A stretch of DNA of 40,828 nucleotides. Origin: a virus. The stretch is from UHGV virus genome UHGV-0352991; one strand, 5' to 3'. Shown here in pieces: positions 13,367 through 40,828 of the stretch (positions within the stretch are counted from its first letter, which is position 1; the number at the start of each line of letters is the position of its first letter). The translations under genes and the position numbers were made by a program. The notes under the pieces are model-generated. The model saw nothing but the letters and a program-made list of their open reading frames with translations, had not been told where the DNA came from and ran no database searches.

Positions 13367-13469
13367 GTTAATAGTCTCCTTTCCATTTTGGGAGTGTCAC
13401 TCCTGTTACTGATCCATTCTCATCGGTGTCACCGGCCGCGCAGAGTTTAATGCCATGCTCGCGTTTGGG

Positions 13470-13500
13470 CATAAAAATAACACGCAGGGCTTTCCTGCGT
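13470..13500 (-). terminator. Rho-independent terminator (CACGCAGG-loop-CCTGCGTG + T-tract)
   Basis: An 8-bp GC-rich stem followed by TTATTTTTAT on the minus strand, right after the 47-aa ORF. Confidence 0.5.
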
Positions 13501-13502
13501 GC

Positions 13503-13646
13503 TTACTGCTCGATCTTATTACATTTGGTACACCGTCTTACATAACCGCCATAAGGACCGGAAGCCCGGCTCCAATGCTTCCGGTAGTGGTGGCAGCACT
13601 CTTTCTTTTTGAAGAACCTCTGCCTGATCCATGATAAAAGCCCCAT
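13503..13646 (-). CDS. Small basic Cys/His-rich (zinc-finger-like) protein, 47 aa
   Basis: Manual ORF MGLLSWIRQRFFKKKECCHHYRKHW...RRCTKCNKIEQ with AAGGTGA RBS. An intrinsic terminator follows it. The 16-bp palindrome sits at its 5' end. Confidence 0.3.
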   Translation of the reverse strand: MGLLSWIRQRFFKKKECCHHYRKHWSRASGPYGGYVRRCTKCNKIEQ

Positions 13647-13678
13647 AAGATCACCTTCTTTCATTTGCGACGTCGCAA

Positions 13679-14002
13679 TTATTCTTCATAAATCACATCT
13701 AACCCATATGCTACCGCTGCATCATGCTCAATCCGGCACCCTCTGGCATTTTCCCAACCCTTACAGAAATAAGCTGCATGACAAAGGGACATATTTTCCA
13801 GACTTTTAGCAAGAAAGCAAAGAGGAATCTGTACCACTCCGCGTTCTTTCATCTTTTCATTGCTGTACCATTCATCAGTAAACAACGTATTCACAATTTC
13901 ATAGCCTTTGGCTTCCAGTGCCTTGATTGCCTGTTCCCTGGTTGCAATAATCTCCTCATCTGTTTTCCCAGCCATTGGCTGACTAAGCATTGCTTTCTTC
14001 AT
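13679..14002 (-). CDS. DUF4406-like (nucleoside 2-deoxyribosyltransferase-like fold) protein
   Basis: C-terminal CHAAYFCKGWENARGCRIEHDAAVAYGLDVIYE matches the DUF4406 GWE-S-G...E...A signature as I recall it. The likely true start is the internal MAGKTDEE. Confidence 0.45.
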   Translation of the reverse strand: MKKAMLSQPMAGKTDEEIIATREQAIKALEAKGYEIVNTLFTDEWYSNEKMKERGVVQIPLCFLAKSLENMSLCHAAYFCKGWENARGCRIEHDAAVAYGLDVIYEE

Positions 14003-14066
14003 CTTCTTATCCTCTCTTTCCTAAAAATGGGTACAAAAATACCACCGGCCTACTGACTGGTGGTAT

Positions 14067-20320: not shown

Positions 20321-20342
20321 ATACTGATAGCAACTAAAATCA

Positions 20343-20416
20343 TCGGAACGGAAGGATTCGAACCCTCGACACACTGGTTATAAGCCAGCTGCTCTTACCA
20401 ACTGAGCTACGTTCCA
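20343..20416 (-). tRNA. tRNA, anticodon UAU (Ile2-like, reads AUA); 74 nt, no encoded CCA
   Basis: Manual cloverleaf: acceptor UGGAACG/CGUUCCG, D-arm GCUC-AGUUGGUAA-GAGC, anticodon stem GCUGG/CCAGU with loop CUUAUAA, T-arm GAGGG-UUCGAAU-CCUUC. Confidence 0.6.
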
Positions 20417-20532
20417 AGGGGGAGACAGCAAGCTTTCACCTGCTGCCTAGTGGGGTTTGACGTAAGCCGCCGGCCGTATGCCTTTGGCTTCCACTCTATT
20501 GTATAACGACATCACCGACTAAACCGACCTTT

Positions 20533-24364: not shown

Positions 24365-24565
24365 CCTCGTATCATGTACGCCATGTACACCACGTATTCT
24401 ATATTTCTTTTATTTTTATACTCTCTATAGTAAGTTTGTAGTTTTGTAGTTATATAGTAGAAATTGCTAGGATTTATGCGGCTTTAAGGGTTCTACAAAG
24501 TCCACTACATTCTGACTACATTGAAAACTACAAAAACTACATAAACTACAAAAAATCTACAAACT
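24365..24565. repeat. Iteron-type origin of replication: CTACA(A/T) x7 with ~10-11 bp phasing plus two inverted TGTAG copies and an AT-rich tract
   Basis: CTACA copies start at 24493, 24504, 24516, 24528, 24537, 24546 and 24557. TGTAGTT copies start at 24436 and 24445. Inverted repeat ACACG-taacg-CGTGT and a CATGTAC x2 repeat lie upstream. The region is non-coding and adjacent to the primase gene. Confidence 0.5.
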
Positions 24566-24573
24566 TTTCTTTT

Positions 24574-26976
24574 CTATGTAGTCGGCCTTGAAAAACCTCT
24601 TTGTTGCCCATACGGTCCAAAATTGCGCGGTGTCCTTATCCGCTGCCATTTTCCATGCAGCAGAATGTTGTTGATCTCCATGCTGTCTGATCTCTTCATG
24701 TATTTGGGATCCCCGCCAAAACATTCCACCCATATCTCTACTGCGCATATCTTATCCCTTACGCGCAGCGTTCCTTCCGTATGCATGCCACCTGAAAGAA
24801 ACATGCGCCGCTTGATCACGTCCATCTGTTCCCAGTTTTCCGGCACCAGACGATCCAGAAAGCTCATGATCATGCCCTCTTTTCCGGATGCTTCCCTGTG
24901 CGTTTCCTGCTGTTCCACTGCCAGGACTTCTATCTCTTTTGGCATATAAAGTGCTTCACCGGCCGCCCAGTACGCATAAGCTTCAGCCCAGATCTGATCC
25001 ACTTCCTGCGACAGATCTTTCCAGACAGATCTCTTTGCTGGATTAACTCCCACGTCTACCGGCCAGAAACGCCGGTTCCCTGTCATGTCTTTTAAAAACT
25101 CGCTGTCATTGGATGTTCCGAAGAACACACACCGCCGCGGATACTTGTCCGTCCTGCGGCCGTATGCCGCCCGGTAGATATCCTCGGTCTTACTTAAAAA
25201 CTGTTTGATCACCTGGGTCTCCTGCTTCGTGAACGCGCTCAGTTCCCCTACTTCATTGATCCATGTTCCCTGGATCAGCTCCGCAGCCTCCTTCCCTTCA
25301 AAGGTCGTAAGACTGTCTGAGAACCACTGTTTACCCAGGATTGCAAGGAACGTACTCTTTCCGATCCCCTGTGGTCCGGTAAAGATCGGCATATAGTCAT
25401 ACTTCACGCCGCCGATCACGGCCCTTGCTACTGCAGCACAGAGGGATTTTCGCATGACAGCACGGGTATACGGCGTATCATCCGCGCCAAGATAATCGGA
25501 CAGCAGTGTGTCCACTCTTGGCTTTCCGTCCCACTGCAGCTCCTGCAGGTAATGCCTTACGTCATTGATCTTATTCTGGGCGCTGACGATCATCAGCGCA
25601 TGATCCAGCTTTTCCCTGCCCGTAAGGCCATAAAACACCTCCACGTAACGGTAAAAGCCCGCGTCATCCACATCCGTCCAGCGGCGCTTCTCATCCCTCT
25701 GGTCCCACGGCACACGTCCCAAGACCATGCCGCAGCTTGCAAATTCATCTGTAACGATCTTTCCCTTTAAAAGCGGGTCATTCTCCAGGACGATCACTGC
25801 ATTGTTAATGGTCTTTTCATATCGTCCATTCCCGTCCTTTGTCAGTTTGGTAAGCCATGAAAGGTCATAATCCAGTGCTGATGCTGTTTCCTGATCCGGC
25901 GTCTTAAACACTTCCCTCGCCTGCTCATAACGCTCCTTTGATAACAGATCCGATACGTTCGGATCATCCTGCGCCAGATGGCTCATCATCACAAACGAAG
26001 GCATCTTGCTGGCAGGTGTGCCCTCTTTCGCATCATTATCCTTATCCCCGAACATGTGGAGGCGGACCATGTCAAACGCGTTTACCAGCTGGCCGCTGCA
26101 CGGATCCGTTGCATGGTGGGAATACAGGAACAGATCCCCGTCATAGATCACGGCACCGCCGACTGTGGAGCCTCCTGTATAGGTGTATCGGCCGGGAATG
26201 GCTGTTTCCTCATACATCCCAGGGATGAATTTCTCCATTGCCTGGGTAATGGTATAAGTCCGGCAGAAAGCGCCGATGATGCCTCTCTTGGCTGTCGGGT
26301 TCTCCTGTCTTGCCAGGCGCCGGCGCTCGATCGCTTCCGATCCGGGGACCTGCGGCCACTGGCTTATATCGTGCCAGTCCCCATACATTCCCAGGACCCC
26401 GTCCAGGCTGCAGAACGGCTTATCGTAGACCTCAGCCACGTACTGGCTGTCACTGCTGCAGCTTGGCCAGTACATCAGCCTGGAAGCCTCAAAGGTTGTC
26501 GGATCGCAGAGCTCAATGCCGATCAGGGACGCCAGTTTTCTTGCTGCAGGTTCATATTCATCTGCGGTACCCGTCCGGTCAACCGGGATGATCACGCGCA
26601 GTCTCGGCGCATACCCGGAATGCTTCCTGGTACTGTAGACCGCAGCGGCACATCCAAGGCCGTCCACACGGCGCAGGATGTCTTCGGTCTGTCCTGTTGG
26701 TATATTGTCAAGATCAAGTGTGATCAGATCTCTTCCTGTCACGTTGGCAGCCTTGCGGCGGTCCCCGGCAAAGGTTCCTCCAACAAACCCACCGACATCC
26801 TTCAGTTCATCCTGCTGGGACTTCGGAAGGGCAAGGTACTGCTCCAGAGTCTCGGTCCCCCGGACCGGTGTTTTCAGCTTTTCCACAAACTCAGACCACA
26901 TGATCTCAGATTTCGGCCAGTGCGTGGCCTTTCTGGTCCCTGCAGTGCTGATCTGCAGTTTTCTGTTATACTGCAT
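24574..26976 (-). CDS. DNA primase/helicase (VirE-like N-terminus + P4/D5-type P-loop NTPase)
   Basis: Walker A GPQGIGKST, 800 aa, adjacent to the family-A polymerase. This is the typical phage replisome layout. Confidence 0.7.
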   Translation of the reverse strand: MQYNRKLQISTAGTRKATHWPKSEIMWSEFVEKLKTPVRGTETLEQYLALPKSQQDELKDVGGFVGGTFAGDRRKAANVTGRDLITLDLDNIPTGQTEDILRRVDGLGCAAAVYSTRKHSGYAPRLRVIIPVDRTGTADEYEPAARKLASLIGIELCDPTTFEASRLMYWPSCSSDSQYVAEVYDKPFCSLDGVLGMYGDWHDISQWPQVPGSEAIERRRLARQENPTAKRGIIGAFCRTYTITQAMEKFIPGMYEETAIPGRYTYTGGSTVGGAVIYDGDLFLYSHHATDPCSGQLVNAFDMVRLHMFGDKDNDAKEGTPASKMPSFVMMSHLAQDDPNVSDLLSKERYEQAREVFKTPDQETASALDYDLSWLTKLTKDGNGRYEKTINNAVIVLENDPLLKGKIVTDEFASCGMVLGRVPWDQRDEKRRWTDVDDAGFYRYVEVFYGLTGREKLDHALMIVSAQNKINDVRHYLQELQWDGKPRVDTLLSDYLGADDTPYTRAVMRKSLCAAVARAVIGGVKYDYMPIFTGPQGIGKSTFLAILGKQWFSDSLTTFEGKEAAELIQGTWINEVGELSAFTKQETQVIKQFLSKTEDIYRAAYGRRTDKYPRRCVFFGTSNDSEFLKDMTGNRRFWPVDVGVNPAKRSVWKDLSQEVDQIWAEAYAYWAAGEALYMPKEIEVLAVEQQETHREASGKEGMIMSFLDRLVPENWEQMDVIKRRMFLSGGMHTEGTLRVRDKICAVEIWVECFGGDPKYMKRSDSMEINNILLHGKWQRIRTPRNFGPYGQQRGFSRPTT

Positions 26977-32646: not shown

Positions 32647-32880
32647 CTACTCCAACAGGTCTTGTTTTTTCTTCCCGATCGTTATTGTTATCCCTAATGC
32701 ATTGGCCACAATTTCTGCATTTTTCAGCGATATATCATGTCGACCATTTTCCCAGTAGTAAATTACTCTGCTGGTAAATCCTGTCATTTCTGCTAATTTT
32801 GCTTTCGAAATTCCCTGCTTTTCTCGTTCATTTCGTAGAATTTTTCCGAACATACATTCTTGCACTTGCTTTTCCTCCAC
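32647..32880 (-). CDS. XRE-family HTH regulator (Cro-like)
   Basis: GISKAKLAEMTGFTSRVIYYWENG HTH. It is the first gene of the leftward early operon. Confidence 0.6.
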   Translation of the reverse strand: MEEKQVQECMFGKILRNEREKQGISKAKLAEMTGFTSRVIYYWENGRHDISLKNAEIVANALGITITIGKKKQDLLE

Positions 32881-32991
32881 TGGTTGTATACTATATATAG
32901 TGCGATGAACATTTGTTCATCATATATATGGTTCAAATGTATTGCTATAAGGTTTGTATGCGTGTCATTTTACTGAAAGGACGGTGTTTAT

Positions 32992-33201
32992 ATGCCAAAA
33001 CGTATTTCTGTAACTCGCGAATCATCTACGGGAAGAAACGAAAATTTCCGTGACAACTTTACTGGTGCAACTATGACTCGAAATCAATTTGTAAGCGAAA
33101 TCCAAAAAGGTAACTACAATCATTATCACGTTAGAAACATTAATGGTATCCCCACCCCTGTTTCTAATCCGGATAAATCTTCACGTAACAATTTAGGTTA
33201 A
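32992..33201 (+). CDS. DUF3892-like small protein
   Basis: NYNHYHVRNINGIPTPVSNPDKSSRNNL matches the yHV..r.G....R..PD...NNL signature. Confidence 0.45.
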   Translation: MPKRISVTRESSTGRNENFRDNFTGATMTRNQFVSEIQKGNYNHYHVRNINGIPTPVSNPDKSSRNNLG

Positions 33202-33332
33202 TCACTCACAGGCACGCATACCACTTTATACCCTTCCTTTTCTATGACATTCTCATCTGTGATACTTATAACCAATTCTTCATCATCTGTAAGAACCTGA
33301 AGTTCCTTGTATTCCTTTCCCGAAATTTCCAT
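33198..33332 (-). CDS. Hypothetical acidic small protein (44 aa)
   Basis: Manual ORF with GGAGGTG RBS immediately after the 67-aa XRE gene. Confidence 0.25.
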   Translation of the reverse strand: MEISGKEYKELQVLTDDEELVISITDENVIEKEGYKVVCVPVSD

Positions 33333-33345
33333 TCTTTCTCACCTC

Positions 33346-33549
33346 CTACTCCAACAGATCTTCGATTGAACACCCTAACACGTCAGCAACCTTTTTTAAA
33401 CTTCTCACTGTTGGGCTTACTGAATTCCATTTACATATACTGCCGATAGACAAACTACAGTCTTTTTCCAGTGCATTTATGGAAATTCCATTTTTTTTAG
33501 CTTCTCGGCAAATGTTGTCGTAAATCAGAACCTCACTCAAACTGTTCAC
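33346..33549 (-). CDS. XRE-family HTH regulator (second Cro-like / antirepressor-side regulator)
   Basis: ISINALEKDCSLSIGSICKWN HTH. It is transcribed divergently from the CI-like repressor. Confidence 0.55.
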   Translation of the reverse strand: MNSLSEVLIYDNICREAKKNGISINALEKDCSLSIGSICKWNSVSPTVRSLKKVADVLGCSIEDLLE

Positions 33550-33588
33550 CTCCTGTCTATGAAAGTTCTGAAAAAATCACTCAAATAT

Positions 33589-33617
33589 ATTGACTTGCTT
33601 CTGAAAATATCCTATAA
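33589..33617 (+). promoter_or_regulatory. Consensus sigma-70-type promoter TTGACT-17-TATAAT (probable repressor promoter) embedded among operator repeats
   Basis: TTGACTtgcttctgaaaatatccTATAAT read directly. The 13-mer GATTTTTTCAGAA occurs at ~33681 and ~33748, with an inverted copy at ~33566. Confidence 0.5.
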
Positions 33618-33782
33618 TCAAATTGTCAAGTAAGATTATCGAAAAATTCAGAGGCATTATTTATATCTCCGTATTTTGCGATTTTTTCAGAACCTTATGG
33701 TTACATTATACGCGATTTATTCAGAATGTCAACAGGAATTTTTGCGATTTTTTCAGAAATTAGAAAAGGACGCAAAATAGGC

Positions 33783-36064: not shown

Positions 36065-36616
36065 ATGCCATTATTAAAAAACGATCAGTATACATCTGAA
36101 GACTACTGGAACCTACCGGAAGGCACCAGAGCAGAACTAATTGACGGAAAACTGTATGACATGGCACCACCCAGTCGAATCCACCAAAGACTTGTTTCTA
36201 AACTAACATCTGTTATTGATCAGTACATTAGTAATCATCACGGAAATTGTCAGGTATATCCTGCTCCATTTGCTGTTAATCTTGATGCTGATGATAAAGA
36301 CTGGGTAGAGCCAGATATTTCTGTTATCTGTGATCCTAATAAGCTTACCGATCGGGGATGCTCCGGAGCTCCTGACCTCATCTTCGAGATTGTATCCCCA
36401 TCTAGCCGCAAACTGGACTACGGGATAAAAAACGGCATTTATTCTCAGTCTGGTGTCCGCGAATACTGGATTGTGGATCCTGCGAAAGAGCGTGTCACCG
36501 TTTACCATTACGAAGATGATGCGGCTCCCGTAATCTACTCCTTCACGCAGGATATTCCGGTCGGAGTCTATCCGGGACTGACGATCAAAATTAATGATCT
36601 GTTGGAAAATTACTAA
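36065..36616 (+). CDS. Uma2/DUF820-family PD-(D/E)xK endonuclease
   Basis: PDLIFEIVSPSSRKLDYGIKNGIYSQSGVREYWIVDP matches the Uma2 signature. Confidence 0.65.
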   Translation: MPLLKNDQYTSEDYWNLPEGTRAELIDGKLYDMAPPSRIHQRLVSKLTSVIDQYISNHHGNCQVYPAPFAVNLDADDKDWVEPDISVICDPNKLTDRGCSGAPDLIFEIVSPSSRKLDYGIKNGIYSQSGVREYWIVDPAKERVTVYHYEDDAAPVIYSFTQDIPVGVYPGLTIKINDLLENY

Positions 36617-36644
36617 GCCACCTAAAAATGTTTAAACGGAGGGT

Positions 36645-37097
36645 ATGATGGACATCAATGAATATATTTCAACTCGACTTGATCCGCAAATTGAATGGTA
36701 TGATGAAAAATCAGTACACGCGCAAAAAAGATATAAACAATTTCAAGTAGTCGAAATCATTCTTGCCGCGTTCATACCTCTATTGTCCGGTTACACCTCA
36801 TTGTGTGATTTAATACCTATAATCATTGGTATTCTGGGTGCAATCATTGTGATTATCGAATCCGTTACAAAACTGTACAAGTATCATGAGAACTGGATTC
36901 AATACCGTTCCACCTGCGAAATGTTACTCTATCAAAAGCATTTGTACTTGACACGTTCTTTCCCTTACAATCCCAATGACGAGACTGTTGATAATATTTT
37001 TATCAAAAATGTGGAAGAGATCATGTCCGCAGAAAACCGCCATTGGAAAAGCATCAACACTGCAGAAAAAGGTAACTCAAAGCAGGATGCTAATTAA
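36645..37097 (+). CDS. SLATT-family (DUF4231) two-helix membrane protein
   Basis: [24 protein letters not shown], then two TM helices, then [13 protein letters not shown]. There is a 28-bp gap after Uma2 and an AGGG RBS. Confidence 0.55.
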
Positions 37098-37272
37098 TAC
37101 GCTCATAAGTCTTTTCAAAAATATCCGGCTTGCAGGGATATTTTTCCCCGTTTACACCAGTAATGATCCAGTCTCCCGGGGATGCTTTCATATCGCCTTC
37201 TAATGTGTGAATTATTTCCTCATGATCGATTTGATAAGCATCAACGATTACTGGTTTTTTACGAAATTTCAT
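37090..37272 (-). CDS. Conserved small phage protein (60 aa; [10 protein letters not shown] ... PGDWII)
   Basis: GAGGTGA RBS. It is convergent with SLATT and overlaps it by 8 nt. Confidence 0.4.
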
Positions 37273-37308
37273 ATCTAATCACCTCATAATAATTGAAAGG
37301 AGAACCAA

Positions 37309-37728
37309 ATGCCAACTTTATACGATTACAGATTATTTATCAGCCACGCATGGAAATATGGTGCCGATTACGACAATCTTGTTAAATTGCTGAATAATGC
37401 CAATTACTTTTCATATCGCAATTATTCAGCCCCACGTGAGAAACCTCTTTTCCCAGCAGGAACACCAGCCACAAATGCTGAAATCAGAAGGCTTATCACG
37501 CAAAAAATCGCCCCATCTCAAATAACAATCGTCATTGCAGGTATGTACACTTCTTATCGCGAATGGATGCAATATGAAATTGATGAATCTGTGCGAATGG
37601 GCAAGCCAATTCTCGGCATCCGTCCATGGGGCAATACTATGATGCCCGCATATGTATCTTTGTATGCCAATGAGACTGTTGGATGGAACACAGACTCCAT
37701 CGTTTCTGCTATCCGCAGGCTCGTATAA
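37309..37728 (+). CDS. TIR-like domain protein (DUF1863 / ThsB-like)
   Basis: N-terminal LFISHAWKYGADYDNLVKLL resembles the bacterial TIR-like (v)FISY..d signature. GAAAGGAGAA RBS. Confidence 0.5.
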   Translation: MPTLYDYRLFISHAWKYGADYDNLVKLLNNANYFSYRNYSAPREKPLFPAGTPATNAEIRRLITQKIAPSQITIVIAGMYTSYREWMQYEIDESVRMGKPILGIRPWGNTMMPAYVSLYANETVGWNTDSIVSAIRRLV

Positions 37729-37961
37729 TTTATTATCTATACTTATAATATCATGTCATTTAGTTATATACAACAATTTGCAAAGTAAATGAAAAACCGC
37801 CCGGTATTGGCGTACCAAACGGCTTTACATAGATTTTCTCTTGCCAGTCTCCTGGCCAGATATAAATCAGTCTGAACACCTGAATTATATCATCTCCAGG
37901 ACGTCTGTGCAAGGGGAGTCTTTTTTGTACTCATTTTTACCTCAAAACAAAGGAATTTATC

Positions 37962-37977
37962 ATTGCGACGTCGCAAT
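37962..37977. promoter_or_regulatory. 16-bp perfect palindrome ATTGCGACGTCGCAAT (copy 2 of 3) just upstream of integrase RBS
   Basis: Read directly. Identical copies are at 40512-40527, and with a 14-bp core at 13665-13678. Confidence 0.5.
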
Positions 37978-37999
37978 CCAATCAAAGGAGAAATGATAT

Positions 38000-39145
38000 A
38001 TGCCAAGAAGAAAAAAGCACAGCCGCCTTCCCAACGGCTACGGCTCCATCCGCTACCTGGGAAAAAACCGGAAGAACCCATATGCAGTCCATCCGCCTGC
38101 AAATATCGACGGTGACCGCCCTGCAGCCCTCTGTTACGTTGATGACTGGATGAAGGGCTTCATCATACTGACTGCCTACAAAGCCGGCACTTATAAGCCT
38201 GGTATGGAAAAGGACCTGCAAGTATTATCTACAGACGAAAAGGATCTGGACACTCTGGCTCAGAAGCTCATGGCAGACTACAGCCTGATCAAGGGCGTAA
38301 CTCCACCAGAAAAGCCTAAGACCTTTGCAGACGTCTACCAGCTTTTCTATGCGAGAAAATTCCGCGAAGGCAATAAACTTTCAAAAAGCAGTAAAGATTC
38401 TATGAGAGCAGCCTACAGAAACTGTTCTATTCTTCATGATCGCCCATGGAACTCTTTAAAATCAGTCGATTTTCAAAATGTTTTAGACAACTGCCCTCTT
38501 AAGTATAGTAGCATCGAACTAATACGAAACCTTTTTCGCCAAATGTGTACTTTTGCCGTAGATACCGATATTTCTGATAAGAATTACGGACAAAAACTGA
38601 TAATCAATAAAGACGATGATGATGAACATGGCGTTCCACTTACTACCAGGGATTTATTGACTTTATGGTGCCATTCAGATAATGACACTGTAGAATTGCT
38701 CTTAATACTCTGCTATTCCGGCTGGCGTATTAATGAGGTTCCTAAATTACGCGTTGATCTGGAGAATGGTTACTACGAAGGCGGCATAAAAACCAAAGCT
38801 GGCAAAGACAGGATTGTTCCTATTCATTCTTCTGTCTATCCTCTTGTAAAACGCCGATATGAAAGATATGGCACTCTTTTACCTATAAGCACATGCGCTT
38901 TCAGGCAAAACATGTACCAGGTCTTAGCACAGTTGGGAATAGAAAAACACACACCACATGACTGCCGACACACATTCTCAAAATTTTGTGAACTCTATCA
39001 TGTAAATGAAAATGACAGAAAACGCATGCTTGGACATTCCTTTGGAAATGATGTTACTAACCGTGTTTACGGTCACCGTGATTTAAAAGATCTGAAAATG
39101 GAAATTGAGAAAATAGATAAAGAATATTTTGTGACTTTATTGTGA
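38000..39145 (+). CDS. int: Tyrosine site-specific integrase
   Basis: C-terminal catalytic region HDCRHTF ... LGHS...YGH (R-H-R-Y residues). It sits at the edge of the lysogeny module. Confidence 0.85.
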   Translation: MPRRKKHSRLPNGYGSIRYLGKNRKNPYAVHPPANIDGDRPAALCYVDDWMKGFIILTAYKAGTYKPGMEKDLQVLSTDEKDLDTLAQKLMADYSLIKGVTPPEKPKTFADVYQLFYARKFREGNKLSKSSKDSMRAAYRNCSILHDRPWNSLKSVDFQNVLDNCPLKYSSIELIRNLFRQMCTFAVDTDISDKNYGQKLIINKDDDDEHGVPLTTRDLLTLWCHSDNDTVELLLILCYSGWRINEVPKLRVDLENGYYEGGIKTKAGKDRIVPIHSSVYPLVKRRYERYGTLLPISTCAFRQNMYQVLAQLGIEKHTPHDCRHTFSKFCELYHVNENDRKRMLGHSFGNDVTNRVYGHRDLKDLKMEIEKIDKEYFVTLL

Positions 39146-39396
39146 CCAATAGACCCCAAGAATACCGATTTTTTCTAAAGGATTCAAAAGGCTGGAGATT
39201 GAAAGAAACCGCATAAAACCTTGGTTTTCATGCAGTTTCCGTTCAATTCCGATTACTTTAAAACGGTAAAGTTTTTAAGTATTATTTAAATTTAATATCA
39301 AGAAAAACCTTGTATTTCCTAGTTTTCTTATTTTATTTGTGACTTTATTGTGACTAATAGGGCAAAATAAACCTAAAGTTTTTAAGAGAATTTATA
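39127..39396. repeat. attP-like region: 24-bp direct repeat TTGTGACTTTATTGTGAC(C/T)AATAG (x2, first copy overlaps int stop) plus TAAAGTTTTTAAG x2 and AAACCTTG x2
   Basis: Repeats at ~39129-39152 and ~39337-39360. Shorter repeats at ~39269 and ~39375. The AT-rich non-coding region lies between int and the endolysin. Confidence 0.4.
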
Positions 39397-40164
39397 TTAT
39401 TTTACAAGGCCCGGATAATGGAGGGCGCCGTCCTGATCCGGAGTTAGGACTACTGGTTCAGTTGCCATGCGGCCGGTCTGATCCAGGTAGTACCACTTAC
39501 CACTGATCGTCTGAAGGCCTTTGAGCATGGCACCGTCAGGGCCAAGGTAATACCAGGAACCTTTGTATTGGTACCAGGTGTCATGGACCATCATTCCGGC
39601 ACCGTCGAACCAGTACCACTTATCACCGTCCTGCTGCCATTTGTCAGAGACGTATTCCCCGGATCCATCATCTTTATAGAAACGCCAACCGCCATTTTCC
39701 TGCTGCCAGCCCGTCTTAATTGTAACAGGTGTTAAAAATAGTTTTCGTTCTTCCTGGCGTCTCCTAGTAAGGCCTGCAAGGACCTTTCCGCCAGCTTTAT
39801 TGTATTCCAGGATCTTAGCCGCTATCTCAGAACGGGTACGAGCGCCTTTAGCCGTCAATCCATCAATGCTTCCGATGTTGTACGCAAAACTTACTAAGGC
39901 ATCATACTCGTTCTGGTTCCAGTTGTAAGCACTATACTTATCCACCTTTGGACCATACTTTTTATCTACAGACTGTCTTAACCAGTCATCTGCTGTAGCC
40001 TGACTGATTTTCAAGCCCTGACAGATGGTTGTGCCGGTAATGGCTTTATCTGCGTTAGTGGTGCCATAGCCGATAGTCCAGACACCTACAGCATCCTGGT
40101 AGGCGGTCAGGCGGCAGCCTTCAAATTTTTTTATGAGATTTAATCCATTATCTGATATTTTCAT
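39397..40164 (-). CDS. Endolysin: N-terminal lysozyme domain + C-terminal cell-wall-binding (choline-binding-type YG/WY) repeats
   Basis: LIKKFEGCRLTAYQDAVGVWTIGYG lysozyme signature. Repeats KWYWFDGAGMM, GSWYYLGPDGAM and GKWYYLDQTGRM. Confidence 0.8.
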   Translation of the reverse strand: MKISDNGLNLIKKFEGCRLTAYQDAVGVWTIGYGTTNADKAITGTTICQGLKISQATADDWLRQSVDKKYGPKVDKYSAYNWNQNEYDALVSFAYNIGSIDGLTAKGARTRSEIAAKILEYNKAGGKVLAGLTRRRQEERKLFLTPVTIKTGWQQENGGWRFYKDDGSGEYVSDKWQQDGDKWYWFDGAGMMVHDTWYQYKGSWYYLGPDGAMLKGLQTISGKWYYLDQTGRMATEPVVLTPDQDGALHYPGLVK

Positions 40165-40191: not shown

Positions 40192-40221
40192 TTGAAAAGA
40201 TTTTCTGCATATGCTATAATG
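40192..40221 (+). promoter_or_regulatory. Strong sigma-70-type promoter TTGAAA-17-TATAAT driving a short antisense RNA
   Basis: TTGAAAagattttctgcatatgcTATAAT read directly. Confidence 0.5.
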
Positions 40222-40226
40222 CCGTT

Positions 40227-40305
40227 AGGCAAAAAGAAATAAGTTTCCATGTTGGACACAAAAGCGAAAGCCCCTGAGTGGTCGAGACTCAGGGGCTTTC
40301 TTCCT
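40227..40305 (+). ncRNA. Candidate antitoxin sRNA (RNA II-like) of an Fst-type type I TA
   Basis: It runs from the promoter above to the bidirectional terminator. Bases 40230-40260 directly repeat 40393-40425, the antisense of the toxin RBS and start codon. Confidence 0.4.
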
Positions 40306-40309
40306 TTTT
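40266..40309. terminator. Bidirectional intrinsic terminator (AGCCCCTGAGT-loop-ACTCAGGGGCT + T-tract)
   Basis: An 11-bp perfect stem, then TTTCTTCCTTTTTT on the plus strand and TTCGCTTTT on the minus strand. Confidence 0.55.
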
Positions 40310-40331
40310 TAGCAGTTAGGCATCTGCAGGC

Positions 40332-40418
40332 TGGTTACCGACTATTTGCCGCCGTCCAACCATTTGATGATGTAGTGGCAAACTACACCAGCCGCAACAG
40401 CGACAATAAAAGAAATAA
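40332..40418 (-). CDS. Fst/Ldr-like type I toxin peptide (28 aa: MENLISFIVAVAAGVVCHYIIKWLDGGK)
   Basis: Strong RBS AAGGAAAGGGGG. Single TM helix plus charged tail. It is similar in length and pattern to Fst (MKDLMSLVIAPIFVGLVLEMISRVLDEEDDSRK). An extended -10 TGTTATAAT lies upstream. Confidence 0.4.
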
Positions 40419-40511
40419 GATTTTCCATGTCAGACACCCCCTTTCCTTACCGGGTATAGGGGCGGTAACTTTGATATTATAACATATGCATGATTTTTAT
40501 TCTACTGATTT

Positions 40512-40527
40512 ATTGCGACGTCGCAAT
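40512..40527. promoter_or_regulatory. 16-bp perfect palindrome ATTGCGACGTCGCAAT (copy 3 of 3), ~40 bp upstream of the toxin-peptide promoter
   Basis: Read directly. Confidence 0.5.
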
Positions 40528-40577
40528 TGGCAGCCATAACCCGGACTGCCTGCGGGAGATAGTCGGATCACCTCCTT

Positions 40578-40828
40578 CTACTTCTTGCTTGCCTGTTTGA
40601 TGACCTGGTGCGCTCCGGTTGCTGCCAGCCCGGATACAATGCCAATGGCTGCAGCGTTGATCACATCTGTTGCTGGAAACTCCGGCATGAGGTACATACC
40701 TGCTACACCCAGGATACCACCGGTCACTCCGCATACTACCGGGATAACCTCATCCTTGACCTTAGTAGTTGCCTTGCAGGCCATGCCACCAAGATAACAG
40801 ATTGCTGTGATCGCTGTTACACTTCCAA
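40578..40828 (-). CDS. Holin (partial; ORF open to the window edge)
   Basis: Hydrophobic helices GVTGGILGVAGMYLM and AAIGIVSGLAATGA with a charged C-terminus. The frame stays open upstream of the annotated Met to position 40828. It lies next to the endolysin. Confidence 0.5.
   Translation of the reverse strand, partial: GSVTAITAICYLGGMACKATTKVKDEVIPVVCGVTGGILGVAGMYLMPEFPATDVINAAAIGIVSGLAATGAHQVIKQASKK

Follow-up and report, generated by a model that had tools for sequence, protein, structure and literature searches.

What is a perfect 16-bp palindrome doing at three separate gene boundaries of one phage genome? The question is raised by UHGV virus genome UHGV-0352991, a stretch of 40,828 nucleotides (hereafter the window, taken at its full length) that open reading frame (ORF), Pfam and PHROG calls identify as a temperate siphovirus. 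The preliminary description of this DNA took the repeat for an operator through which a phage regulator, possibly the ArpU-like or the zinc-finger-like protein, would coordinate transcription of the int, late and lysis regions. Comparison with other phages leads to a different answer: the three sites, listed here, are best explained as local copies of a lineage-specific boundary palindrome of gut Firmicute (Lachnospiraceae-type) phages.

13664..13679 (core 13665-13678): boundary palindrome copy 1, after the stop codon of the DUF4406 gene and ahead of the Zn-ribbon gene
37962..37977: boundary palindrome copy 2, 6 nt upstream of the Shine-Dalgarno sequence (SD) of int, after a terminator-like hairpin
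40512..40527: boundary palindrome copy 3, between the holin gene and an inserted small-peptide cassette, 50 nt past the holin stop

A scan of the window finds the 16-mer ATTGCGACGTCGCAAT exactly at 37962-37977 and 40512-40527, while the site at 13664-13679 reads TTTGCGACGTCGCAAT and departs from it at the first base only; the 14-bp core TTGCGACGTCGCAA, exact at 13665-13678, is common to all three sites. The count first reported, two exact 16-mers and one exact 14-bp core, is thereby reproduced, and the window holds no further copy even with up to three mismatches. Chance does not account for this number, as had been claimed, since dinucleotide-preserving shuffles gave a mean of 0.12 matches and none out of 100 reached three. 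The placement at operon boundaries is a fair description of copies 2 and 3; copy 1, on the other hand, occupies an intercistronic spacer within the late gene block.

The palindrome is far from private to this genome. An exact scan of IMG/VR retrieved 27 stretches with the 16-mer and at least 120 with the 14-mer, the loci being partial contigs. Among 109 non-redundant contexts, the pair of bases outside the core is G..C in 54 and A..T in 12, where chance would give 1/16 each, and the consensus RTTGC-GACGTC-GCAAY often extends towards CTGTTGCGACGTCGCAACAG. Furthermore, the exact core lies ahead of the scaffold module in 27 of 80 viral contigs with a related capsid (83-100% identity), and it is exact in those 27 despite at least four different upstream and at least four different downstream flanks. 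Few copies at syntenic sites have decayed. The variants are single transitions without exception and fall for the most part in the centre. The int copy is found again in 11 related loci, where ~140 bp upstream are conserved and the cargo beyond varies, and the same arrangement precedes two unrelated integrases (L218 and L175); several holin-endolysin spacers contain the lysis copy. The search of related phages that had been proposed as a check thus finds the motif at each syntenic position, that before the scaffold module, that before int and that in the holin-endolysin spacer. Its absence from these positions, which was to count against a functional site, is therefore not what is seen, and the motif can be taken as a genuine cis element under selection.

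A scan of one genome per species with the 14-mer returned mostly chance hits in all phyla, together with prophage-like contexts in metagenome-assembled genomes (MAGs) of Lachnospiraceae type (Mediterraneibacter, Eisenbergiella, Roseburia, Acetatifactor). A literature search for the 14-mer gave no match and no Rfam family covers the palindromes. Apparently, then, they form a family that is widespread in gut Firmicute phages and seemingly undescribed, rather than a private operator set. Besides this, a contig of an Eisenbacteria MAG with 67% GC (L270:2823-2935) carries three exact 14-mers and one degenerate copy within 112 bp, which looks like an unrelated operator array sharing the sequence by chance.

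The contexts in which the copies stand are informative. In the usual layout, a stop codon or a terminator is followed by the palindrome, 1-12 nt, the SD and the start codon; the palindrome mostly ends 1-8 nt ahead of the SD (range 1-12), and its distance to the start codon has a peak at 15-18 nt. What follows are genes without relation to one another: five divergent Zn-ribbon subfamilies, three integrase lineages, endolysins of the lysozyme type and with Amidase_3, Xis-like and helix-turn-helix (HTH) proteins, and a DUF3102 protein. In a second context, the palindrome has a terminator on one side and a stop codon, or another terminator, on the other. In a third, it lies within long ORFs, read in the frame (V/I)ATSQ in acidic linkers between domains. 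About 45% of the contexts are outside long ORFs, a proportion far higher than that of non-coding DNA in a phage genome.

Several observations indicate that sequences change partners at the palindrome. Its upstream flanks fall into classes (genes ending in ...CCATGTAA, ...GTTAGGTG or ...AAATTAAATAA, and a terminator with a GTACCC tail) that join freely with the downstream classes, namely the Zn subfamilies and other genes, and for several pairs of upstream and downstream classes all four combinations are seen. In a protein of ~590 amino acids (L122), two in-frame palindromes flank a middle segment that measures 567, 258 or 702 bp depending on the contig, and the similarity between relatives stops exactly at the palindrome edge. 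The spacer of L011 runs from one palindrome through the peptide cassette, two genes and a terminator to a second palindrome (with one transition) and the endolysin SD, while L108 and L204, which lack the cassette, share its outer flanks and have a single palindrome directly before the endolysin SD. This is the only precise pair of palindrome-insert-palindrome and single palindrome that a search among the loci found. Within the window, every copy abuts an accessory insertion: the DUF4406 gene (not in L033), the peptide cassette (not in L108), and the variable cargo upstream of int.

Other phages carry sister palindromes in which the arms RTTGC/GCAAY are constant and the central hexamer (GACGTC in type 1, as in the window, ACCGGT or AACGTT) is specific to the type. 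Type 2, TTGCACCGGTGCAA with centre ACCGGT, occupies the same syntenic spot in 31-32 of the capsid relatives, and a scan with its sequence gave at least 120 loci. It has G..C flanks in 64 of 103 contexts and occurs in up to three copies per stretch among the matches listed. As with type 3, its contexts are of the kinds seen for type 1: it precedes the SD of holin, Amidase_2, integrase and structural genes, or is read as (V/I)APVQ within linkers. Phages of 13 kb and 33% GC with inverted terminal repeats carry type 3, TTGCAACGTTGCAA with centre AACGTT, in 8-9 copies (at most one mismatch), most of which open a group of overlapping genes. These type-3 phages (L342, L350, L351, L362, L364, L365, L370 and L371) are the densest example of the palindrome family; rarer types include TTGCGCCGGCGCAA. 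Types 1 and 2 hardly mix: among the matches listed, no type-1 copy occurs in 1.03 Mb of type-2 loci and a single type-2 copy in 1.5 Mb of type-1 loci.

One gene accompanies the type-1 palindrome closely, and it is the one next to copy 1.

13503..13646, minus strand: gene of a 47-amino-acid basic Zn-ribbon protein, a candidate for the cognate factor or else a cassette linked to the palindrome

The association of the palindrome with this zinc-finger-like gene had been noticed in the window and extends well beyond it. Indeed, a palindrome with at most one mismatch lies within 80 nt upstream in 46 of 49 copies of the gene, the exceptions having a small ORF in between, and the gene is found in none of 120 type-2 loci. 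Invariant throughout are C17, H19, C39, C42 and the stretch YRKHW...GGY.RRC.KC. In the AlphaFold model, an N-terminal helix accompanies a zinc-ribbon-like core built as a beta-hairpin, with a predicted local distance difference test (pLDDT) score of ~84. The protein belongs to no Pfam family, and the best PDB matches of the model, ribosomal and RNA-polymerase zinc ribbons, have E >= 3, none being significant. An assignment to mini-HNH nucleases or to a known family was set aside, given that Pfam yields no signal even at E = 10 and that no fold match is significant. As far as sequence comparison goes, the association between gene and palindrome would fit a cognate binder and, equally, a cassette that can move only between type-1 sites.

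How are these features to be accounted for? Fourteen bases stay invariant beside flanks that have diverged, and few copies are decayed, which points to purifying selection and hence suggests sequence-specific recognition. An account that we find plausible, if somewhat short of probable, is that selection maintains, where units meet, a recognition site or hairpin of dyad symmetry, for which the Zn-ribbon protein is the candidate binder, and that this site is also a crossover point in cassette exchange. A trans-acting factor, for which the Zn-ribbon protein encoded beside copy 1 is the best candidate, would recognise the site either as duplex DNA or as a tetraloop hairpin of 6-8 bp on a polycistronic RNA, and the bound site would set the expression of the unit that follows, be it the Zn gene itself, int or the lysis cassette. 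Since many different genes are preceded by the same 14-25 nt, the site could become a crossover point for cassette exchange between co-resident phages, and the accessory insertion at each window copy would be there because cassettes have been exchanged at the palindrome; likewise, the conserved site may serve as a crossover for the exchange of protein domains. The presence of copies across all gene classes, in terminator-flanked spacers and in in-frame linkers disfavours a promoter-bound operator for a particular regulon, and a highly active site-specific system is disfavoured because several active recombination sites in one genome would be self-destructive.

A number of facts weigh against this account. 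The hairpin of the 16-mer is weak (-5.3 kcal/mol), and if the promoter-like site predicted ahead of int (first line below) is real, copy 2 spans the int transcription start, so that a full RNA hairpin would be impossible there. Copy 3 is separated from the next SD by 75 nt and precedes a promoter, and the copies within coding sequence or between a stop codon and a terminator are not explained by regulation of a downstream cistron. As to the Zn-ribbon protein, its association with the palindrome could stem merely from a cassette mobility restricted to type-1 sites; five capsid relatives have a perfect palindrome although the 6 kb to each side of it are free of the Zn gene, and the type-2 and type-3 phages, which are without the protein, would need other factors. 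Moreover, the counts of palindrome types and of Zn genes come from partial contigs, at least 120 stretches per scan.

37936..37963, plus strand: weak promoter-like site TTTACC-16-TATCAT, whose -10 abuts copy 2
37984-37990 and 38000-39145, plus strand: SD of int and tyrosine integrase gene, the unit after copy 2

The alternative that fares best, which we consider rather unlikely, dispenses with a dedicated protein. An RNA hairpin 5' of the ribosome-binding site would, by its structure alone, insulate or stabilise the translation unit, for instance by blocking 5'-to-3' decay, and its copies would be identical through recombination. Speaking for this reading is the placement of the site, always in a transcribed spacer near an SD, and the hairpin does form in predicted folds, with a 6-bp stem and a tetraloop for the 16-mer and -11.1 kcal/mol for the 20-mer. 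Where the sense strand is known, five of the intergenic single-base stem variants are compatible with G.U pairing and one is not, the other variants falling in the central ACGT, and copy 3 stands beside GAAGGAGGTGATCC, a complement of the 16S rRNA 3' end, and a covarying hairpin. Yet the stem is weak, and structure by itself requires neither 14 invariant bases nor arms that are constant across families. The in-frame coding copies and those between terminators do not fit either, and synonymous changes that break the pairing are common in coding copies, although the latter are confounded by synonymous sites.

The classical operator comes next and appears unlikely to us. Here, a dimeric regulator (ArpU-like, Zn-finger-like, Cro or CI) bound to the three duplex sites would coordinate the int, late and lysis promoters. 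The perfect dyad with base-specific conservation and the link with the Zn-ribbon gene are what such a model expects; copy 2 abuts the -10 of a conserved promoter-like site and would span the int transcription start, and TTGCGA in copy 3 could be the -35 of a TAGAAT -10. However, the position relative to promoters is not constant: most copies precede an SD by 1-12 nt, too close for a promoter to fit in, or separate a stop codon from a terminator, or are in frame within genes. The immunity switch (32880-33726) has no copy, even with three mismatches, and contains other inverted repeats instead. The same site is found in many different phages despite different immunity regions, in front of early, late, lysis and integration genes that are unrelated, all temporal classes being represented, and a phi29-like phage of 13 kb has 8-9 copies. 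No link of the ArpU-like protein to the palindrome was found. It is on this point, the coordination of int, late and lysis transcription by a bound regulator, that we part from the preliminary description.

Recombination may also be put first, and this we hold to be distinctly improbable. The arms RTTGC/GCAAY would bind a recombinase and the central hexamer would be the overlap that decides on compatibility, like the spacer variants of lox and FRT. Constant arms around a hexamer that is type-specific and nearly exclusive per locus are in keeping with such a core site, as are the precise difference between palindrome-cassette-palindrome and single palindrome, the junctions exactly at palindrome edges, in-frame ones included, and the presence of the palindrome next to four different integrase genes. 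On the other side, very short arms tell against it, as does an overlap that, being palindromic, lacks polarity; a genome with several active sites (nine in 13 kb) would destroy itself; no common recombinase is seen and none is in the ORF set of the small phi29-like phages; and just one precise insertion or deletion case was found. In a bolder form, to which we grant the same slight chance, the palindromes would be a code for cassette exchange, with inverted arms of 5-7 bp and a 6-bp palindromic centre (GACGTC, ACCGGT, AACGTT or GCCGGC) that sets compatibility groups, genes and in-frame domains being swapped by a putative enzyme or by hairpin-driven template switching; if true, it would be the phage counterpart of integron attC or of lox-spacer logic. 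Finally, the binding site of a host factor exploited by many phages of related hosts, with palindrome types reflecting host clades, is very unlikely: phages that share little else do have the same site and types do track base composition (type 3 in 33% GC phages), but the matches in Clostridia genomes, from a scan dominated by chance hits, are in phage-like contexts and not in a chromosomal regulon, and the site does not match LexA, parS, cre/LacI-type or ComA boxes.

Several known kinds of element were considered apart from these. LexA boxes read CTGT-N8-ACAG or GAAC-N4-GTTC, and parS reads TGTTNCACGTGAAACA; these, like the cre/LacI-type, ComA and MetJ boxes, differ from the palindrome in spacing or half-sites. 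An intrinsic terminator was rejected for want of a U-tract behind the hairpin on the transcribed strand: no T-run follows the 6-bp stem in the sense direction, and the one match of a terminator scan to a palindrome is on the antisense strand at copy 1. A promoter with TTGCGA as -35, or as -35 of the extracytoplasmic function (ECF) kind, has no properly spaced -10 in most contexts, and a Chi-like role was discarded since the half-sites are not enriched outside the palindromes.

Of the systems documented in phages, the closest in behaviour are, by analogy, the promoter-early stem-loops (PeSLs) of T4-type phages, composites of ~50 bp with a sigma-70 promoter and a functional terminator (PMC2839356, PMC4122927). 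Like a PeSL, the palindrome is a short non-coding motif that is repeated in a phage genome, flanks accessory genes and appears as a recombination point for modular shuffling. Unlike it, the palindrome is perfect, of 14-20 bp, without promoter or U-tract, occurs in frame within genes and comes in nearly exclusive types; the junction flanking accessory genes is thus shared, whereas the sigma-70 promoter and the terminating stem-loop are not. In Cluster A mycobacteriophages, stoperators are 13-mers without symmetry, aligned with the direction of transcription and bound by the immunity repressor, which also binds at the early-promoter operator (PMC6550527, PMC9283540). They resemble the palindrome as multi-copy short sites, lineage-specific and mostly in short intergenic spacers, and are matched to a cognate protein; the palindrome differs in being a perfect dyad, absent from the switch region and common to phages with different immunity modules. 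Operators of the CI/Cro kind are likewise a poor match, the switch region having no copy and the identical core recurring in contigs with unrelated neighbouring modules.

Other parallels are looser. In the modular theory of lambdoid phages, linkers are short conserved junction sequences that permit homologous exchange, mostly hypothetical or weakly conserved; here, by comparison, the junction is an invariant palindrome in hundreds of contigs. In lox and FRT variants and integron attC sites, inverted arms surround a central region that defines compatible sites, and cassettes are bounded by sites. The palindrome has inverted arms around a type-specific centre too, but its arms are just 5-7 bp, its centre is itself palindromic, it is far shorter than attC and no recombinase is identified. 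Mu Com on the mom mRNA and lambda N on boxB are small basic or Zn proteins that bind a hairpin near the start of the target, as phage-type-specific pairs. The tiny gene of a basic Zn protein paired with a short hairpin would be, by analogy, a candidate pair of this sort, although there is no sequence or significant fold similarity and copies occur within ORFs and in phages without the protein, where such a pairing would not lead one to expect them. Repetitive extragenic palindromic (REP) elements occupy intercistronic spacers and Rickettsia palindromic elements lie in frame in genes; these are imperfect, chromosomal and 35-150 bp long. Repeats of the kind served by REP-associated tyrosine transposases (RAYTs) are strictly extragenic, imperfect and 35-40 bp long, with an associated Y1 transposase. 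The likeness lies in repeated palindromes in intercistronic spacers or in frame; the phage-borne ones are 14-20 bp long, perfect and also found within ORFs, and the ORF, Pfam and PHROG annotation of the window includes no transposase, nor any ParB-like or LacI-like gene.

Should the favoured account of a recognised boundary site be correct, mosaicism in an abundant group of human-gut phages would be channelled via a defined sequence with compatibility types, and not via random illegitimate joins filtered by selection. Module boundaries would then be predictable from sequence, and the landing of accessory, defence and toxin cassettes at the same places would be explained. It would also offer a handle for phage engineering, through insertion points that evolution tolerates, and it nominates the 47-amino-acid Zn-ribbon protein and the 16-bp site as a testable nucleic-acid recognition pair.

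The neighbourhood of copy 1 comprises the following features.

13679..14002, minus strand: accessory gene, DUF4406 / nucleoside 2-deoxyribosyltransferase-like, whose TAA stop abuts copy 1
13479..13503, minus strand: strong terminator-like hairpin with a 10-bp stem, directly after the Zn-ribbon gene
13478-13367, minus strand: conserved leader of the scaffold gene, ~110 nt, after the terminator-like hairpin

In relatives that lack the DUF4406 gene, such as L033, a terminator abuts the palindrome instead, and in those without the Zn gene the palindrome is followed directly by the terminator-like hairpin. The first ATG of the Zn-ribbon ORF (13664-13662) overlaps copy 1, and the ATG at 13646 is the start that is preceded by an SD, GAAGGTGA (13658-13651). 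The ORF thus has two in-frame ATGs (13644-13664, minus strand); the SD-proximal one is ACG in relatives L030, L034, L190 and L201, in which the start may be the palindrome-abutting ATG. Hairpin and leader (13367-13503) are kept across the capsid relatives whatever the upstream gene, and form a second conserved junction or regulatory element within the late gene block. A tail motif, TTTTT-RTRCYC, is present four times in the window (13467-13477, 14029-14039, 24413-24423 and 37922-37932) against 0.35 expected, three of the four coming after a terminator-like hairpin, and TTTTT(G/A)TACCC(A/T)TTTT often precedes the boundary palindrome in relatives, in type-1 and type-2 phages alike.

Around copy 2, the -10 of the promoter-like site ahead of int is TATAAT in relative L021. 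The cargo upstream of int (36065-37728) is defence-like, with a Uma2 nuclease-like gene, a SLATT/DUF4231 two-transmembrane effector and a ThsB-like TIR protein, and recurs in just one of the 11 int-relatives. In the segment 37793-37911 (minus strand), a strong promoter, TTGCAC-17-TGaTATAAT, points away from int and meets, ~85 nt further on, a terminator with a 14-bp stem (37826-37793), which makes the segment a candidate small RNA; this promoter block is kept beside different integrases (L218, L021, L165). A direct repeat (39128-39184 / 39336-39392, ~72% over 57 nt, with the first 25 nt, TTTGTGACTTTATTGTGAC..., nearly identical) covers the 3' end of int, and its second unit stands 208 bp downstream in the int-endolysin spacer; the two units may be attP arm sites or a duplicated end of the target gene.

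The lysis region around copy 3 is arranged as follows.

40578..40828, minus strand: holin gene (Hol44 family), whose first 13 nt are at window positions 13-1
40257..40469, minus strand: inserted small-peptide/sRNA cassette, downstream of copy 3
39397..40164, minus strand: endolysin gene (lysozyme and choline-binding repeats), directly preceded by the palindrome in cassette-less relatives

Copy 3 is ~25 nt upstream of the TGtTATAAT promoter of the cassette (-10 at 40481-40476), behind which a hydrophobic peptide of 28 amino acids is encoded (40343-40429, minus strand). The cassette also has a 14-bp bidirectional terminator (40266-40300) and a strong antisense promoter, TTGAAA-17-TATAAT (40192-40220, plus strand), and it matches the Rfam family SpF66_sRNA (RF02442) with 52.4 bits; as a whole, the segment 40192-40469 between holin and endolysin resembles a type I toxin-antitoxin system. 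Right after the holin stop (40529-40577, minus strand), GAAGGAGGTGATCC is fully complementary to the 3' end of 16S rRNA with no usable start codon, and resembles a stabilising SD; a mini-ORF ending in IATSQ was rejected here because relatives do not conserve its frame. Downstream of GAAGGAGGTGATCC comes a hairpin (40550-40529) with a stem that covaries among relatives (GGCAG/CTGCC, GGCAA/TTGCC or CGGTC/GACCG) and a loop that can pair with an upstream CTCCCG, which may constitute a cis-regulatory RNA for endolysin expression.

As regards the genome as a whole, INPHARED contains no close relative of the window by DNA or by the Zn-ribbon protein. Joining the end of the window to its start restores the start codon of the holin gene together with its AGGAGG ribosome-binding site, which indicates a complete circular or circularly permuted genome. 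The minus strand carries the late genes, from ~20.2 kb to position 16, and the replication genes occupy 22.6-31.4 kb. The interval 32.9-34.7 kb is flanked by a Cro-like gene and by an XRE repressor with ImmA, and is followed by a low-GC accessory block (Uma2, SLATT/DUF4231 with ThsB-like TIR), then by the tyrosine integrase, the endolysin, the 28-amino-acid peptide cassette and the Hol44 holin. A tRNA-Ile with anticodon TAT (20342-20417, minus strand) is located between the ArpU-like regulator gene and the late genes, and about nine iterons of TGTAG type (24470-24575) between the VRR-NUC and primase (VapE-like) genes mark the probable origin of replication.

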